A DNA stretch of 20,000 bases from positions 184,271 to 204,270 of the forward strand of contig JBEWZL010000246.1 of assembly GCA_045837725.1 (NCBI GenBank). Direction: 5' to 3'. Below are positions 5,047 through 14,946 of the stretch, in pieces (position 1 is the stretch's first letter; every line of letters starts with the position of its first letter). The notes under the pieces are model-generated. The model did no database searches. It worked only from the letters and a program-made list of their open reading frames with translations, and had not been told where the DNA came from. A program made the position numbers and the translations under genes. The DNA is from Vermamoeba vermiformis. Lineage: Eukaryota.

Positions 5047-8000
5047 ATGGATCCTAATTACGGTGAACAACCGGATGACTTGGATTACCTAGATGATGGG
5101 TTGATTCAAGAGCAAGACCTTCCGTATGACGATGAAGATGACGATAAAATTGATGAAACATTTGGTGATGATCTGCCTGTTGGTAAGCGTTTATTTCTTG
5201 TTTAAACCACTAACAGAAAATTATTTATTGTTTTCTATATAATCGTTGTAAAATTACCCTGGCTTGTAGTAACGTTACAAATATTAATATAATATTATTT
5301 TAAATTCAAGGACGCGATTGGAAGCCTGATGAAGGCAAAGTAGCCGAGTTTGAGAATTTTTTCCAAAAGGGATTGCAATCTGGGGAAAGTAAGGCATTGA
5401 AACATTCGTGTCCCTTTGCAACACCGAATAATAATATGACTTAGATATCCAAAAAGAGAAGAAAGACCAATCAGGAGGTTTTTTCCCTTTCTCAACACCG
5501 GACCCGTCAAAACTACGCAGCTTCCTTAATGAGAATCGAAGCTTAAGAAATCAACGAGAAGAACTCGGCGAGGAAGATGACGAGCGCAATGACGATACAT
5601 TCGGAGACTATGACGACGAAAATGAAGAGGAAGTTGCACTCGTACGTCAAATTCACAAATTTATCGTGCACACATTTATTCACTGAAATTTTGTATTATT
5701 AGCGATTGGATCAACAACTGTCGAAGACTTTGAGCAGTCTCGTTCTTGACGACGATACTACTAGTAACCCAAGACCCGCTCAACCACGCTTCGTAAGATT
5801 TAATTGTTAAATTTGAACTCCGCGCACGGAGAACTTATCCTTTTTCGCTTAGCCGCCTAACTTTAATATGATGCCTCCTGGTTTGAACAAGGTAAGTAAA
5901 TCATCTACGGCACTACAATTGCAGGTGTACTAACGATAGTTTCAGCCTGGTTTACCTTCAATGCCACCTGGCGTTCAGGGTTCACCCGCGCGTCAAGAAG
6001 GACGTCGCGTGTTGTCGCTCGAGGAACTTGAGGCCAAGATGACTAACTCGCCAAAGCCTGCTCAACCTCAATCGAATATGCCTCAACCACCTCCTGGTCT
6101 TGGTGTCGGTCCCGCTGCTAATCCTCAAATGCCCATGCCGATGGGAATCTCACCAATTATCATGCAACAGTTAATGCAACTGCCGCCTCAGATCCAACAA
6201 CAATACTTGCAACAACTGATGCACCAACAACAAGAGATGATGGCTCGTATGAAGATGAACCCCGGCATGAACGCACCGCCCGGTATGGTTCTTCCTCCTA
6301 ACATGATGCCTCCTGGCGTCTTGCCACCGAACAACGCTCCCAACATGACTCCCGCGTTCTTGCAACAAATGGCACAAGCACAACAAGGACAGCAACCTCA
6401 ACAAATGCAACAAAACCAACAACCTAAACCTGTTCAACTTCAACAGCCTTCCGCCGCACAACAGGCTCAAGCACACGCTCAAGTGCAACACGCTCAAGCT
6501 CAAAAGCTTCAGCAACAGCAGGCCGCTCAAAACCAACAGGCTAACAAGGAACCGTTGACCAAGGCTGAACAACAAGCCGCTGAAGCGAAAGAAGATCAAG
6601 AGAACGGTCAAAAGCAACGAAGAAAGGGCTCGTTCATTCGCCGAAGATGGAATATTGGCCGCGAGTTGATGACTGCTGAAGAAATTGATTCGATTATTCG
6701 TATGCAAGAACAACAATTGAACTTTGAGAACCCGTTCTTGGACGACTATTACTATCAGAACACTTTGATGCGAAAAGACAGTAAGTTTCATTTGCTTGAG
6801 TTTTGGCACGTGATTAACCTTCGAATAGACTCGGCTGCTACTAAGTTGATCTATCATCGCCCTATCTGTGAGGCTCTTACCCGCGCTCCTCCCAAGAAGA
6901 CTACTATCGACTTCCAAGGAGTTTTAGGACGTATTCCGACCCACTCTGTTCGCGCACCTCGCCCAATCTTGCAGCTCGAAGAGGAGAAACCTGGTGACGC
7001 CTCCAACGAACAAGCCGAGAACGAGTCTCAAAAGCCACGTGCGATCTCTACTAGAACTACTCCCGTTGGCTCGAACCACTATTATTTGCTCGCTATCGAA
7101 GACATCTACAACATCGTTTTGGAGATTGAAGACTTAGACACTATTATCAGACACATCTCCAACGACTCTCGAGACCAGTTCTTCAATAAGAATGGTTTGC
7201 TCGAGAAGCGCAAGGAGAAGACAGAGGCCTTATATCAATTATTGAGCGTTCATATCCCGGCTCCCGGTCCTCTTCCTCCCTCAAACAACGCTAGCGCTTA
7301 CTACTGGTAAGAACTCTAACCGTACAAGTACTGTTGTATTGTTGCTAATGTGCCTTTTTATTCTAGTTCTGAAGATGAATTCTTGATGCGCGTCACTACT
7401 ATTCCTAAGGGCTCGACACTCTTGGGCCGTGCTCTTCAGGTGCTGTTCCCGCCTCACTTGTTGACCATTTTGTTCCAGTACATGCGCAACTTGTCGATCT
7501 TGCTCTCTACTCCTAAGAGCGAAGAAGACGAAGTACGATTGAAGCGCGTCTTCGAGTTCATCGTGGTTGCCATTAACAACTTCCCGCACGCTCAAGTTTT
7601 GATTGCATTCCAATCACTTTTGGCAGCACATCCGGCTCCCAAGTTCATCAAGATTGCCAAGTCGAAGTTTGGTGTGGCTATTCTCGCCGCCTTCTTGAAG
7701 AAGGGCTACGAAGTGCTTCGTATTGCTATGACCAATCCTCAAAGTGCTAACGATTTGATGCCCTCTTGGCGCCATTTGTTCTCGCTCTTCTTCGAACAAT
7801 TGGCTGGCAAGGCAAGCGGCTTGTTGGCCGGTGACATTACCGTTGGCTACACGAACAAAGCGAGCACTAATCAGATTTGGGAGTTGTTTACTATTATTGC
7901 AGTTAACTCTACGCCGACCCAAAAATCAGATCTGTTGCGCGAGTTGACGTAAGTCTGATCCGCTTTAGTTTAAAAATCTTAATAGTAACTAATATGCTTC

Positions 8001-8085
8001 ATCATATAGGCCTATTATCAAGTCGATTGACATGACTCCTCAAATCAAGAACTTCTTGCATGCCCTAGGAATTCAAGGACAATAA
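5047..8085 (+). CDS. PAT1: mRNA decapping activator / P-body scaffold Pat1, 9 exons (5047-5182, 5311-5388, 5445-5641, 5703-5792, 5853-5891, 5946-6780, 6829-~7306, 7367-7948, 8010-8085)
   Basis: Acidic N-terminus with DETFGDD..VGRDW and NDDTFG (DDX6/Dhh1-binding type motifs), helical leucine motif LSLEELE, a P/Q-rich region, the mid-domain signature LMTAEEIDSIIRMQEQQLNFENPFLDDYYYQ, LGRIPTHSVRAPRPIL and a helical C-terminal domain. Confidence 0.92.
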
Positions 8086-8754
8086 GCAGATCCGCGAGTG
8101 ACTCGTCCACCTCTATTAACGTTGTGAAGTATTTAGTTCTTAAACGAAGTCCTAATATTTATTAAAGCACGGACTTTTTGCGATTATCCTTCGGTTCTAA
8201 AGGCATGTATAATATACAAAAGTAAATGTCGTTTGTGTCTAGATCCTTCTCATTTCCAGAGTTACCGATACGAAACACATTTGCTCGGCAAGTGTCGCAC
8301 CCGGCACAAGTACTCGTTGTTAATGTCGTTCATGATTGGTCAAATTTTCCTCCCGTTGGGTACTTGCGGTTTTGTCCAAACATTATTTCGCACGTGCAAG
8401 CAAACCACAACAAATCCCTACCTCCTTGCGGCCCTCTCTGTAGTACCGCACCGCTTCATCTCCATGTTAGTAGTATGAGTAAGTGTACTAAGCTTAATAG
8501 TAATACCGCTCGCGAGCGGCGTTAGTGCTGAAGAAAGTGGATCCAAATGATTCAATAGCAATGCTTTGGCTGAAAATAATGATGCCTTGTTTGTATTCGC
8601 TGATGGATCTACTATTATTTAATTTTTTTGGATTTTTGGTATTATTCTAATCCGGCTAAATCTAATCTATTTTTTATCGTCAGGTGGCTAAAAACGCTAG
8701 CAATTCCTTGCAGAAGAGTAACACATGAAAGTTAATTTATCTCAAATTATCTAC

Positions 8755-9242
8755 TTTTTGCCCTGCGGTTGCTGATCGTGGTAGCAAAGATCAGATGGGT
8801 TGAGAGACCCTGCTTCTTGTGCCTCTTTGGTTTGCATTATTAGGATATTTCTTGCGTCGCGGATTATAGAGTGTTATACTAGCGTCATGTGGCGTGAGCT
8901 GTCAGGCTTGCCGTGACTTGGCACGATCCAATTTACGAACCCGGTTCCAGATCTTGCACCAATGATTGCATTCCGGATATGCGCACATTTTGGCCCTTGA
9001 TAATCATTGCTGTTCCTACAATTTTGAAGAGGCGTGATTGCCAACCGATCCCGTGCAAAACATTCGAGATTTGCTCAAAATTCATCTTTTTTGTCCTAAA
9101 TAGGCGGACTGGGCACGTCCTTTCTATGAATCATCGCGTGTTATTATACCACGAGAGTTGATACAGCCTCATGTGAGTACAATCCAATTCTGCAGCCGTA
9201 TTTTCTCCTCGCGTGAGGCTGGATGGGCAGCATGGGCAAAAA
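8755..9242 (+). ncRNA. Candidate ~490-nt structured RNA of unknown family
   Basis: Terminal stem 8755-8766/9230-9242. Internal helices 8819-8827/9027-9035, 8851-8860/8889-8898, 8960-8968/9001-9009 and 9164-9177/9208-9221, with plus-strand G-U pairs. No credible ORF. Confidence 0.4.
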
Positions 9243-9720
9243 AATTTCGAAAAAGCGAGGGACTTTTGCGCTTTAGTCCTGTAACGTATCGTTACTGAGC
9301 AAGAATGCCCGCCGGTGCTAACCTTGCTGTAACATTTCGCCATAAAAGGAAAACGAAGCACGTGATGTACGCGTGACTTTCTTCGTTTCGGTGATGGAGT
9401 CGCGCGTAATCTCGATAATCTAACAAAAGTTGGTAACACGAGGAGTTTATTGACATTTTTTCTCTGGCCCTATCACTACACCACTAGTGTCCTGAACACA
9501 TCAAGAAACGTTGACGAAAGGTCGTGATCTTCAGTTTTGGTTCAGAGACGAAGTCTATATTGCCCTCAAACCCCAGTTAGATAGAACCAGTGATATATTT
9601 ATTATACAATTATTTATTTCAGTTTATGGCAAGGTAAGAATTGAATAACTTTCGGGTTTTTTCAGAACTCGATCTCGCTTGTAATAGCGGAATAATGACT
9701 CATATTGCTATATTAGTACG

Positions 9721-11399
9721 ATGGGCAATGCAGTGCAACCTCAACCCGTCGATTTTAAAGATTTGAGCCACTTGGCAGGACGGTGGGTGGGAATTTATGG
9801 TAAGTTATTCTAAAATCCATATAACTTTTGAACGGTCTGCGTAGCGGACCTTATTAGGTTTCTAATAATTCACCGGAGTAAATATTGGACCACTATAAGC
9901 TAAAATTTGATCGCCATATCGCGCTGGAAATAATTTTTCTGTCGGATTTGTTGGAAACGAAATCCAGCATGGCCAAATATCAATAATTAAAAGTCCAATA
10001 TGCTCTACAGTTATATAATAACCATATTCACGCATCGTTTCGATAATTACTGAGTTATAACAAGAAAACCGATTGTAGTAACGTGACACAGCGTTACCCA
10101 AATAATTGATTAGCGCAATTAGAAGAGATAATTATGAATCAATATTACCATACGATGATAGTGGATCAAATATATCCTTATCCCGCTGTCATTATTTGAA
10201 CTAGAAGAAAAATATTTGTTTCAAATCCAACAATTAAAACTCGGTCAGAAACTAATCTGCTTTTGTTTTAATAGGACCTCATGGTTTAGAAATTATAGAT
10301 GTACAATTTAATAACGGTACTCTCGTTGGAATCAAAGTCAGCGGCGATCCCAATGTTCCATCTGGTACGTGCCTTTGAATTCTCTCGAAATTTAGAGCTT
10401 TGCTAACACAAAGCGAATAATTCGTTCAATAACATACGATCGCAGTTTGACATTTAGATATTTCGATCGGACAATTGTTTTTCAAGATTATTGTCGATCT
10501 GCTTTCCTTTCGGATACGGATTCAAATCGCCCTCGCGATCTCGCGCATATGCACATTATACTGATTCTTAATATCTCAGGCGAGGTCACATTTGAAGTTG
10601 AAAGTACAGGAGTAGCGAGAGGTCGCGTAGCAGAAACAGGTTTTGTAAATCCAACTTGGCTGCCCGGAAGGTACGCTTTATTTCACTAGACAGTCCAAGG
10701 ATTCATTATAATAACGTATATTATAGGATAACATGGTCTGAAGATGAATTAGATGAATTTGTATTTACATGGGAAGGCTGTGGATCCGTCCAGTTTTTCC
10801 GAGTTCCAATGAACTTCACACTAACAGAAGACAACGTGAGGACATTTTTGGCGCAGAACTACACGAGGATAGTTTATGTAAACGGTAAGTAACAATACTG
10901 AATAATTTTGAGATCCGGGACAATGGCACTAATGCCGGCTTTCCTTAAAAGGTTATTATTTCTTTTTGAACCGAGAACACAAGAAGCGAGGCGCTAGCGA
11001 AGATTCGGTGAAGAGCTTGCCAATCATTGCTTACTCCGCTGCCTCTTGCCAGTGCTCGAGGTAAGTTTTCTTTTTTTGGATTTGAACCGAGTTGGACCCA
11101 CCCTAAATTATTTAAACCGCAAAAAGCGTTACGATCCGTTTATAATAATGAACGTGTACACGCTTTAAGACCTAGCAAACCCTAATTAAGTTTTTTTAAA
11201 CAGATGTACTGTTTGCTTGAACGATTTTGAAGAGAATGAAGAAGTTAAGCAACTGCCTTGCAAACACTATTTCCATACAGAGTGCATCGAGAAGTGGCTA
11301 CAACAACGAGATGCGTGTCCTTTATGCAATGCAGGAGTCGAATCCAGTCCAAGCAAAAGTAAAGGTTCAACAGCCGCAGCAGACGTGGCCGCCCAATAA
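9721..11399 (+). CDS. DUF3506/Cyclin-D1-binding (FBXO31/EXECUTER-type) domain + C-terminal RING-H2 E3 ligase; exons 9721-9799, 10275-10364, 10580-10670, 10727-10885, 10952-11060, 11204-11399
   Basis: Spliced product: MGNAVQ...GRWVGIYGPHGLEII...GIKVSGDPNVPSGEVTF...GRVAETGFVNPTWLPGRI..., then CTVCLNDF...LPCKHYFHTECIEKWL...CPLC (C3H2C3). Confidence 0.85.
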
Positions 11400-13516: not shown

Positions 13517-14946
13517 ATGGCAGCACAACCAACTCAAAGATTCCTCGAAGGAAAAGGAGATATATTTAATGGCCTTACTATCACCGAACTACCAGACACT
13601 GTTGAAGAGTTTGAACAAATTTTGACTGGTAAGATCTTGGATCGCGCCAAGTCGCGAGATAAATTTGCAACCGATTTATTTATATTCGCATTATTTTTGT
13701 AGTACGGCAGAGTCAAATTAGTCTTATTGGATCCATCAACTGATTATTTTAATTTTAATAATAATTTTTGACTAGCTTCATTGGCTGAATGGACGAATAT
13801 TAAAAAGAGAGGAATATGGATTAAAATACCGATTACTAAATCTGAATTTATTCCTATTGCAGCCAAGGTAACGTGTGACCTTCTCGAAACTTCGGTTCTA
13901 ACGTTCGATTTTAGTTGGGCTTTGAATTCCATCACACAAAGAAGGATTATTTATTCATGACCAAATGGCTGCCACTGGATGAAGAGAATAAGTTGCCTGC
14001 CTATACCACGCATTATGTTGGTACGTCAAATTTGACAGTCGAATGAAGTACTAACCATTTCAATAGGTGTTGGCGGTTTTGTGTTAAATGACGTAAGAAA
14101 TATAACTTGACTTAATTTCCCGCTGCTGACAAAAAGACAGAAAAAAGAACTGCTGTGCGTACGTGAGAAGTATTTCGCGGTCAGCCCTTGGAAGTTGCCA
14201 GGTGGCATGGCTGATCCCGGTAACTATCTTCGTTATATGACATTGAGTGTGTATTGTTGACAAGGAACAGGGGAGGACTTAGGCGAGGCAGCCAAGCGAG
14301 AGGTCTTCGAAGGTAACACGCGTTGACATGTCAACCACAGTCTAGTACTAATATGAAGCGTAGAAACTGGAATAGAAGCAGAGTTTGAATCGATCATTTG
14401 CTTTAGGCACAGACACGATGCCGCGTTCGGAGGGTAAGTAGGCTTTAGGTGACTCATACCGGTTGGGTTGAAGTTCTGTCAAAAATTCGGATCAACAACG
14501 GCTCCGTAGTATAATGGCTATTATATTGGATTCTGACTCCAAGGATCCCGGTTCAATTCCGGGCGGGGCCTCTTTCTTTTTACTTTTTTACCTTTTTTAC
14601 CTTGTTAAGCTGTCCTGACTTCTTTTTAGTGGCGATCTGTATTTTATTGCGAGATTGAAACCAAAGACTACCGAAATTAAAATAGATCCACTCGAGATCG
14701 CGGAAGCTCGTTGGATTCCGGTAGGTGATTGTGACTTTCTTCGCCATTAGCTTATTACAATTACAGATCGATGAGTACATCAATGACCCGAGCATCTATG
14801 ATACAAACAAGGAAATCGCAAAGTTAGCGATGTCTCACTGCAGCGATTCTGATCCGTACTTGTACAAAGAGACAGAGTATTCCACAATTCCAGTGCCTAA
14901 TTGGAACAAGACGGCCAATCACCTATTGTACAGAAGCGGAAAGTAA
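13517..14946 (+). CDS. Nudix hydrolase, NUDT6 / plant NUDT2-7-8-like, about 9 exons
   Basis: Spliced motifs KRGIWIKIP, GFEFHH, LPAYTTHYVGVGGFVLN, WKLPGG, the Nudix box GMADPGEDLGEAAKREVFEETG (split over small exons), FRHRHDAAFGGGDLYFIARLKP and EIAEARWIP. Confidence 0.9.
14500..14571 (+). tRNA. trnQ-CTG: tRNA-Gln(CTG), intronic
   Basis: 72-nt cloverleaf: acceptor GGCTCCG/CGGGGCC, D-arm with TAGTATAATGG (A box), anticodon arm TTGGA-TTCTGAC-TCCAA, T-arm CCCGG-TTCAATT-CCGGG, followed by oligo-T. Confidence 0.96.
14577..14598 (+). terminator. RNA polymerase III oligo-T terminators of the tRNA
   Basis: Three runs of T5-T6 immediately 3' of the tRNA. Confidence 0.7.

Follow-up and report, generated by a model that had tools for sequence, protein, structure and literature searches.

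Analysis of a 20,000-nucleotide stretch of Vermamoeba vermiformis DNA (the window, which comes from a eukaryote with many introns and whose RPS3 exon shows 99% identity to a protein from a 90% cluster that includes the Vermamoeba vermiformis entry) revealed downstream of the Pat1 gene a single-copy stretch of about 430 bases (the element) that, judged from sequence comparison, is probably a non-coding RNA of an uncatalogued family, with a putative strand, expression and job. The element is conserved in islands, carries a conserved hairpin, has no reading frame and adjoins a box C/D snoRNA. We regard it as fairly probable that some conserved structured RNA resides at this locus, and tentatively read it as a long, atypical H/ACA-type nucleolar RNA that would be co-transcribed with the snoRNA on the plus strand. 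The initial annotation, which had proposed a plus-strand RNA-like fold of ~490 nt at 8755-9242 as a candidate new ncRNA, pointed to the right place for mostly the wrong reasons. The candidate itself is upheld by its island conservation, conserved hairpin, single copy, lack of a frame and lack of an Rfam match; the fold, its limits and its terminal stem fell away, and a shallow RNA run (X22) gave 0 reads over 8704-9440.

The gap downstream of Pat1 contains a box C/D snoRNA

The element lies in a gap that spans from the poly(A) site of Pat1 (Pfam PF09770; poly(A) reads end at 8241) to the ATG of the next gene at 9721; spliced reads place the splice site of the first exon of that gene at 9800. 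This gap had been described as gene-free, which is incorrect, since it contains at 8540-8610 what its sequence identifies as an unannotated box C/D snoRNA, complete with terminal stem, all four boxes and an rRNA guide before D' (Table 1). The snoRNA is identical at 73 of 77 positions (95%) to its counterpart in L001, a single metagenome contig that is syntenic with the window over the end of Pat1, the snoRNA and the element up to ~9180. Over 11 nt its D' guide (8558-8568) is perfectly complementary to LSU rRNA. Out of 13 rDNA loci tested, 4 contain this match, and most of the others differ at the target site or stop short of it. An 11-nt match alone was equalled by 10 of 60 shuffles, and the assignment therefore relies on the placement of the guide before D' together with the 95% conservation. 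No target of the D guide was found among the rRNA stretches examined, which come from eukaryotes other than Vermamoeba. All rRNA pairing was tested on the rDNA of such other eukaryotes, out of 35 loci, the 13 longer than 1800 nt served for the guide search and 5 for the 20-mer and pseudouridylation-target tests described below. We observed eukaryotic rDNA, a contamination, in at least 35 prokaryote genome records and several viral-contig records (L015-L049, L003, L006, L008).

The snoRNA sits in a predicted intron whose donor, branch site, T tract and acceptor all recur in L001; spliced reads over this intron were absent from the four runs mapped on 7900-9900 (the RNA run X22, and X3, X4 and X5). 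The conserved motifs upstream of it probably belong to a non-coding host unit, as its promoter or first exon. Within the 13-nt exact match among them, the 9 nt at 8403-8411 show a 6-nt periodicity and are unchanged in L001; they may be a promoter motif or template-like.

Table 1. Features of the locus, in window positions
Feature	Position	Strand	Description
Conserved upstream motifs	8333-8447	+	exact matches to L001: 9 nt at 8333, 13 nt at 8402, 9 nt at 8439
Predicted snoRNA-bearing intron	8479-8683	+	GTAAGT donor, CTAAT branch site at 8662, T tract, AG
Box C/D snoRNA	8540-8610	+	terminal stem; C, D', C' and D boxes; rRNA guide before D'
Hairpin A	8740-8805	+	66 nt, imperfect stem of 21 pairs, diverged top; 5' limit of conservation
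Variable region	8806-8929	unassigned	41% identity to L001; z -0.6, no better than shuffled
Conserved core	8930-9085	open	73% identical to L001
Core, plus-strand model	helix 8948-8955/9066-9073; hairpin 9031-9042	+	two-sequence consensus
Core, minus-strand model	helix 9053-9046/8943-8936 closing hairpins 9042-9031 and 8976-8947	-	two-sequence consensus
Invariant 20-mer	9024-9043	unassigned	longest exact match to L001 when snoRNA and Pat1 transcript are set aside
H-box-like ANANNA	9057-9062	+	kept in L001
Short hairpin and ACA	hairpin 9130-9162; ACA 9163-9165	+	within a 6-nt exact match
14-bp helix and 3' terminal arm	9164-9242	+	present in the window; 10-nt deletion in strain X4

The element is conserved in islands

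Comparison with L001, which rests on these two divergent sequences only, divided the element into two conserved islands and a weak third. Identity was 40% at 8685-8739, 70% at 8740-8805, 41% at 8806-8929, 73% at 8930-9085 and 52% at 9086-9185, with exact matches of 20 and 12 nt in the element; for reference, it was 60% in the Pat1 intron (56-60% over introns), 89% in the Pat1 3' UTR, 59% in the promoter gap and 95% in the snoRNA. The promoter gap is conserved as well (z 10.7 against shuffles; longest exact run 13 nt), so that island conservation by itself does not prove an RNA. Short related motifs recur among the conserved blocks.

All frames of the element in the window are broken by stops, and the window contains no second copy of the element. 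Viral contigs gave 0 matches when searched for further relatives, whether by snoRNA pattern, 14-bp helix, 20-mer or Pat1 exon; prokaryote genome contigs yielded 0 and metagenomes 1. Likewise, a covariance model of the core run against nine sources recovered just its two source sequences. The papers searched gave no description of the element or of Vermamoeba ncRNAs; ncRNA annotations in GenBank or in supplements of Vermamoeba genome papers may already name the locus.

The 490-nt fold is at chance level

Every helix of the initial annotation was found at its position; their set and the whole fold, however, proved to be at chance level. The 488-nt stretch folds at -148.9 kcal/mol on the plus strand and -123.7 on the minus strand, which corresponds to z -1.27 (15 of 100 shuffles as good) and z +0.34, respectively. 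It contains 16 helices of at least 9 bp, compared to 16.4 in 60 shuffles, 17% of which contain a helix of at least 14 bp; taken singly, the 14-bp hairpin reaches z -3.63 (1 of 200 shuffles). In a scan of 8000-9999 with 48 sliding windows of 120 nt, all those within 8755-9242 stayed short of z -2 on both strands; the strongest local score of the gap (z -2.46) came from 9360-9479. The 410 nt of L001 fold at z -3.19 (0 of 100 shuffles).

L001 ends short of two 3' arms, those of the terminal stem and 14-bp helix, and could be compared at five other helices, none of which stays intact. Of their pairs it retains 3 of 6, 3 of 5 (the GGGUU stem of the GNRA hairpin), 1 of 9 (where one arm is missing), 5 of 10 and 5 of 9. 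The base of the GNRA hairpin, the GUGCCUCUU arm and the 10-bp helix all fall in the variable region. As for the terminal stem said to close the fold, its 5' arm is engaged in a local, conserved hairpin beginning 15 nt upstream of the annotated fold, and in strain contig X4 a 10-nt deletion at 9229 takes away the 3-bp extension of the stem; in strain X3 the CAAUGAUUG helix is altered at two places of its 3' arm. We do not count the GNRA hairpin, the terminal stem or the 10-bp G-U helix as conserved features, and the limits 8755-9242 find no support, conservation in L001 giving others that start at 8740.

Hairpin A leans to the plus strand and the core consensus to the minus strand

The hairpin that takes up the 5' arm of the terminal stem, hairpin A, is paired in 39 of 42 cells over the window and L001, with one double and one single change, while slid controls gave 36-52%. 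Its plus-strand z is -3.12 for the window sequence and -4.40 for L001, the minus-strand values being -0.99 and -4.63; none of 200 column shuffles was as good on either strand. Its folding energy in the window is -24.5 kcal/mol on the plus strand versus -15.1 on the minus strand, so hairpin A, as modelled, leans to the plus strand. The tool's own shuffle control has no power with two sequences (244 of 500 for hairpin A). Once the folded region was extended to 8738, the best fold of the window sequence switched to hairpin A. A helix 8783-8788/9070-9075 with one double change was not adopted, as it competes with hairpin A.

For the core, the two-sequence consensus gave z -3.28 (0 of 200) on the minus strand and z -1.25 (25 of 200) on the plus strand. 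The minus-strand model is paired in 38 of 40 cells with three double and four single changes, several of which give G-U pairs on this strand only. Its closing helix, 9053-9046/8943-8936, is the sole survivor of 192 divergent candidate helices, the chance estimate being ~1; 58 of 500 tool shuffles reached the score of the minus-strand core, and as single sequences the minus-strand cores fold at z +0.48 and -0.59, with a different best fold in L001. The plus-strand core of L001 reaches z -2.86, but its 3' partner differs from that of the window, and the plus-strand core helix is invariant between the two sequences and for this reason proves nothing. The plus strand, which the initial annotation had derived from wobble pairs, is favoured at the 5' hairpin and disfavoured in the core, and for the element as a whole it is a putative assignment.

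Read on the plus strand, the invariant 20-mer includes 13 nt that are complementary to a single foreign 5.8S rRNA (L036) at its 3' end. Over 17,417 nt of rRNA, 3 of 60 shuffles were as good as this 13-bp match, giving p ~0.05 before the blocks and strands tried are counted. It is present in one of five foreign sequences, none of them known to be Vermamoeba (score 12 versus 5.5-7.5 in the other four), and in the genome behind L036 no copy of the element was found (best E 0.155).

H/ACA-like features and comparison with known RNA families

In box H/ACA snoRNAs an H box (ANANNA) lies in a single-stranded hinge, and an ACA follows the last hairpin, 3 nt before the 3' end. The H-like box and the ACA of the element occupy aligned positions in both sequences, the ACA immediately 3' of a hairpin, and similarity to L001 fades beyond the ACA; we propose that the 3' end of the putative RNA lies at ~9168. 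ANANNA is a frequent motif, with 15 plus-strand matches in the window stretch and 6 in L001. The stretch from H box to ACA folds poorly (z +0.16 and +1.13), two independent halves, if forced, cost 9 and 18 kcal/mol, and no convincing pseudouridylation target was found in the five rDNA loci, the best shared pocket scoring 9 in one foreign rRNA only. Since the fold is poor and no target stands out among these loci, we do not assign the element to the H/ACA guides, which combine a hairpin-hinge-hairpin-tail fold with pocket and target; the proposal is that it would work like a processing-type H/ACA RNA. T5 and T6 runs inside the element on the plus strand argue against polymerase III.

Relaxed Rfam scanning showed that none of the families suggested for this size class (RNase P/MRP, telomerase, 7SK) fits the element: at E up to 10, neither the window element nor L001 matched SRP RNA, 7SK or a spliceosomal snRNA, and on the element only a weak C/D match came up, on the minus strand (E 2.2-5.2) and well short of the cut-off. 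At gathering score, the single match in the whole window was a tRNA. Using what we take to be the nuclear RNase P CR-I/CR-V (P4) consensus, we found one CR-I-like match on the minus strand and no CR-V match in the window or L001. Resemblances to what we take to be the motifs of U1, U3, U8, U14, U24 and snR30/U17 were dropped because each occurs in one sequence only. A box C/D pair flanking the element was not found either, one conserved C-like hexamer at 9034 having no conserved CUGA behind it. Searching for RNase MRP P4 strands 100-360 nt apart, with the consensus given in PMC1796607, yielded no correctly ordered pair of 5' and 3' strands in both sequences. RNase MRP carries a GARAR pentaloop on P8 (PMC13184271); GARAR letters occur at 8802-8806 in both sequences, but they are paired within hairpin A, and we rejected them as such a loop. 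Telomerase RNA carries a template of about 1.5 telomere repeats; templates for 10 known repeats were absent from the element in both sequences. The papers searched gave no statement of Vermamoeba's telomere repeat, nor did they list as a telomere repeat the one that 8403-8411 would template.

Strain contigs and RNA reads

Contigs from other strains cross the element ends at flank depth (X3 at 8577-8810; X4 at 8714-8914 and 9152-9452), and it is from this depth, which is below 5, that single copy is inferred. Among the differences listed for these contigs, beyond which there are 44 more, X4 differs little inside the element (9 letters in 8714-8914 and 3 in 9025-9181) compared to 31 in 9620-9890, although its pieces may derive from different strains. 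The RNA run X22, from another strain and with poly(A) tails, placed 35 reads on the 2 kb out of 1,849 million letters, covering the last exon of Pat1 3-8-fold and position 8630 with ~4 reads. It shows no abundant poly(A) transcript from the element; none of its reads falls on 8704-9440, at a depth too shallow to exclude a non-polyadenylated RNA.

Discussion

From these data we infer transcription, strand, ends, H/ACA nature and target of the element as follows. Polymerase II would transcribe a non-coding unit on the plus strand from the motifs at 8333-8447, splicing would release the box C/D snoRNA from the intron at 8479-8683, and the downstream part would be trimmed to an RNA of ~430 nt (~8740-9168). 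Hairpin A, which begins 57 nt behind the predicted 3' splice site, would shield the 5' end, and H/ACA proteins would hold the 3' end at the H-like box, the short hairpin and the ACA. The invariant 20-mer would be the working part, pairing transiently with pre-rRNA, for which the 3' end of 5.8S is the best candidate. Such pairing would delay the 5.8S/28S proximal stem, as U8 does from the 28S side (PMC9196750). That 5.8S rRNA is indeed the target, making the element a protist analogue of U8, we consider quite doubtful and offer as a lead only.

The proposed RNA would resemble snR30/U17 and snR10 in its size class, H-like box, ACA behind a hairpin and extra hairpins, as well as in having a short invariant motif as the likely working part and a neighbouring snoRNA. 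It differs from them by lacking the canonical two-hairpin fold and an Rfam match, and its ACA end is predicted; moreover, the stretch 9011-9019, which resembles what we take to be the m1 motif of the snR30/U17 type, is deleted in L001. The upstream snoRNA is ordinary in size and boxes among amoebozoan box C/D snoRNAs and those of non-coding host genes. Exons of snoRNA host genes are as a rule not conserved, whereas the downstream part here is. Its predicted intronic position contrasts with Dictyostelium, where nearly all snoRNAs are intergenic and 1 of 47 is intronic (PMC8817022). According to PMC9196750, U8 acts at the 5.8S/28S proximal stem, is metazoan and pairs with the 5' end of 28S, its job being thought to be done in cis in yeast. 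The transient pairing proposed here at the root helix of the large subunit is reminiscent of the rRNA chaperones U8 (SNORD118) and snR190, which are, however, box C/D RNAs, a conserved C/D pair being absent from the element; in addition, the 20-mer would pair with the 5.8S strand, unlike U8 with the 28S 5' end (PMC9196750). If the element is a processing snoRNA pairing with 5.8S, it would be a non-animal counterpart of U8 (PMC9196750); if it is neither this nor a telomerase RNA, it is still a defined lineage-specific RNA candidate in a widely used host of giant viruses and Legionella, of modest general interest.

Several other explanations have to be weighed against this plus-strand model. The consensus score of the core and its double and single changes, the Sm-like site that both sequences retain at 9082-9075 and the formation of hairpin A on the minus strand of L001 would all suit a stand-alone minus-strand RNA, made from a promoter region at 9250-9450 shared back to back with the next gene, in which the core would be a multi-branch junction binding proteins through the invariant loop 9039-9034 and hairpin A would be the 3' end. 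We judge this rather unlikely, given that the closing helix is near its estimated chance number, that tool shuffles equal the score, that the single-sequence cores fold no better than shuffles, that the window's hairpin A is weak when read on the minus strand, and that the Sm-like site would lie near the 5' end, a place for which we know of no matching snRNA. It is also rather unlikely that no stable RNA is made, the islands being DNA elements (promoter or terminator) or an unstable host exon and hairpin A a local processing or termination structure: the absence of X22 reads, the insignificant whole fold, the recurrence of related short motifs and a promoter gap comparably conserved in islands speak for it, but a 21-pair hairpin with a double change and an invariant run of 20 nt exceed what the promoter gap offers, and X22 is too shallow to serve as a test. 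The 9-bp terminal inverted repeat at the ends of the annotated fold raised the question of a MITE, the probability of which we put close to nil, since strain contigs span both ends at flank depth, a target-site duplication is absent from the ends, the window has no second copy, and the interior occupies the syntenic place in L001 with the left-end GCCC changed.

Hairpin A might instead be a microRNA precursor in the snoRNA host transcript, with the core as a separate element; it is a 66-nt hairpin with two conserved 22-nt arms and a diverged top, and amoebozoans possess miRNAs (PMC11014262). This we find improbable, as each arm differs at 3 of 22 places, in contrast to the dictyostelid mir-1177-5p, which is identical across species, precursors there being mostly 75-125 nt (PMC11014262), and as the core would be left unexplained. 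A telomerase RNA of Amoebozoa with an animal-like H/ACA 3' end and a CR4/5-like junction in the core would agree in size and in its fast evolution in islands, and the 9-nt periodic stretch at 8403 could template a G-rich repeat. In our own comparison the order of junction, A-rich linker, small hairpin, H box, hairpin and ACA resembles that of vertebrate TR, whose P6.1 has 4 bp and a 5-nt loop (PMC4993307). Here the loop of the small hairpin 9031-9042 is 4 nt long on a 4-bp stem, neither a template for the known repeats nor a pseudoknot was found in the element, and the 8403 stretch lies upstream of the intron amid promoter-like motifs, all of which makes this assignment very improbable, despite the likeness to animal telomerase RNA (H/ACA, CR4/5) in size, island conservation and feature order. 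Slimmer still is the chance of a spliced polymerase II telomerase RNA with the snoRNA in its intron, the template 8403-8411, for an unusual 6-nt repeat, in exon 1 and the CR4/5-like and H/ACA parts in exon 2. If a telomerase RNA were indeed encoded, its H/ACA type would predate the amoeba-animal split, which would fill a gap in the tree. Finally, a strongly diverged RNA of the RNase P or RNase MRP kind would account for the size, for GARAR in both sequences and for a CR-I-like decamer on the minus strand at 8957, also in both; with GARAR paired, no Rfam match at E up to 10, an identity of 41-73% that is low against the 95% of the snoRNA, and matching 5' and 3' P4 strands (PMC1796607) lacking in either sequence, we deem it extremely improbable.

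Additional observations

The first intron of the next gene (9801 to ~10276, ~475 nt in spliced reads) is long for the window and may host another small RNA, although Rfam at gathering score gave no match in it. Upstream of that gene, 9240-9465 is nearly identical in strain contigs X3 and X4 and carries palindromic CACGTG/CGCG-rich motifs. The 8-mer GGACTTTT has three copies in the window, at 8171 and 9260 on the plus strand and 9996 on the minus strand, all within 1.9 kb around the gap. The Pat1 3' UTR (8085-8244; 1038-882 of L001), whose 89% identity far exceeds that of the introns, contains exact runs of 23 and 39 nt, and is likely to have a regulatory role in this mRNA, which encodes a decapping factor. 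A tRNA-Gln(CTG) gene lies at 14500-14572 on the plus strand, near an RNase Z-like gene.
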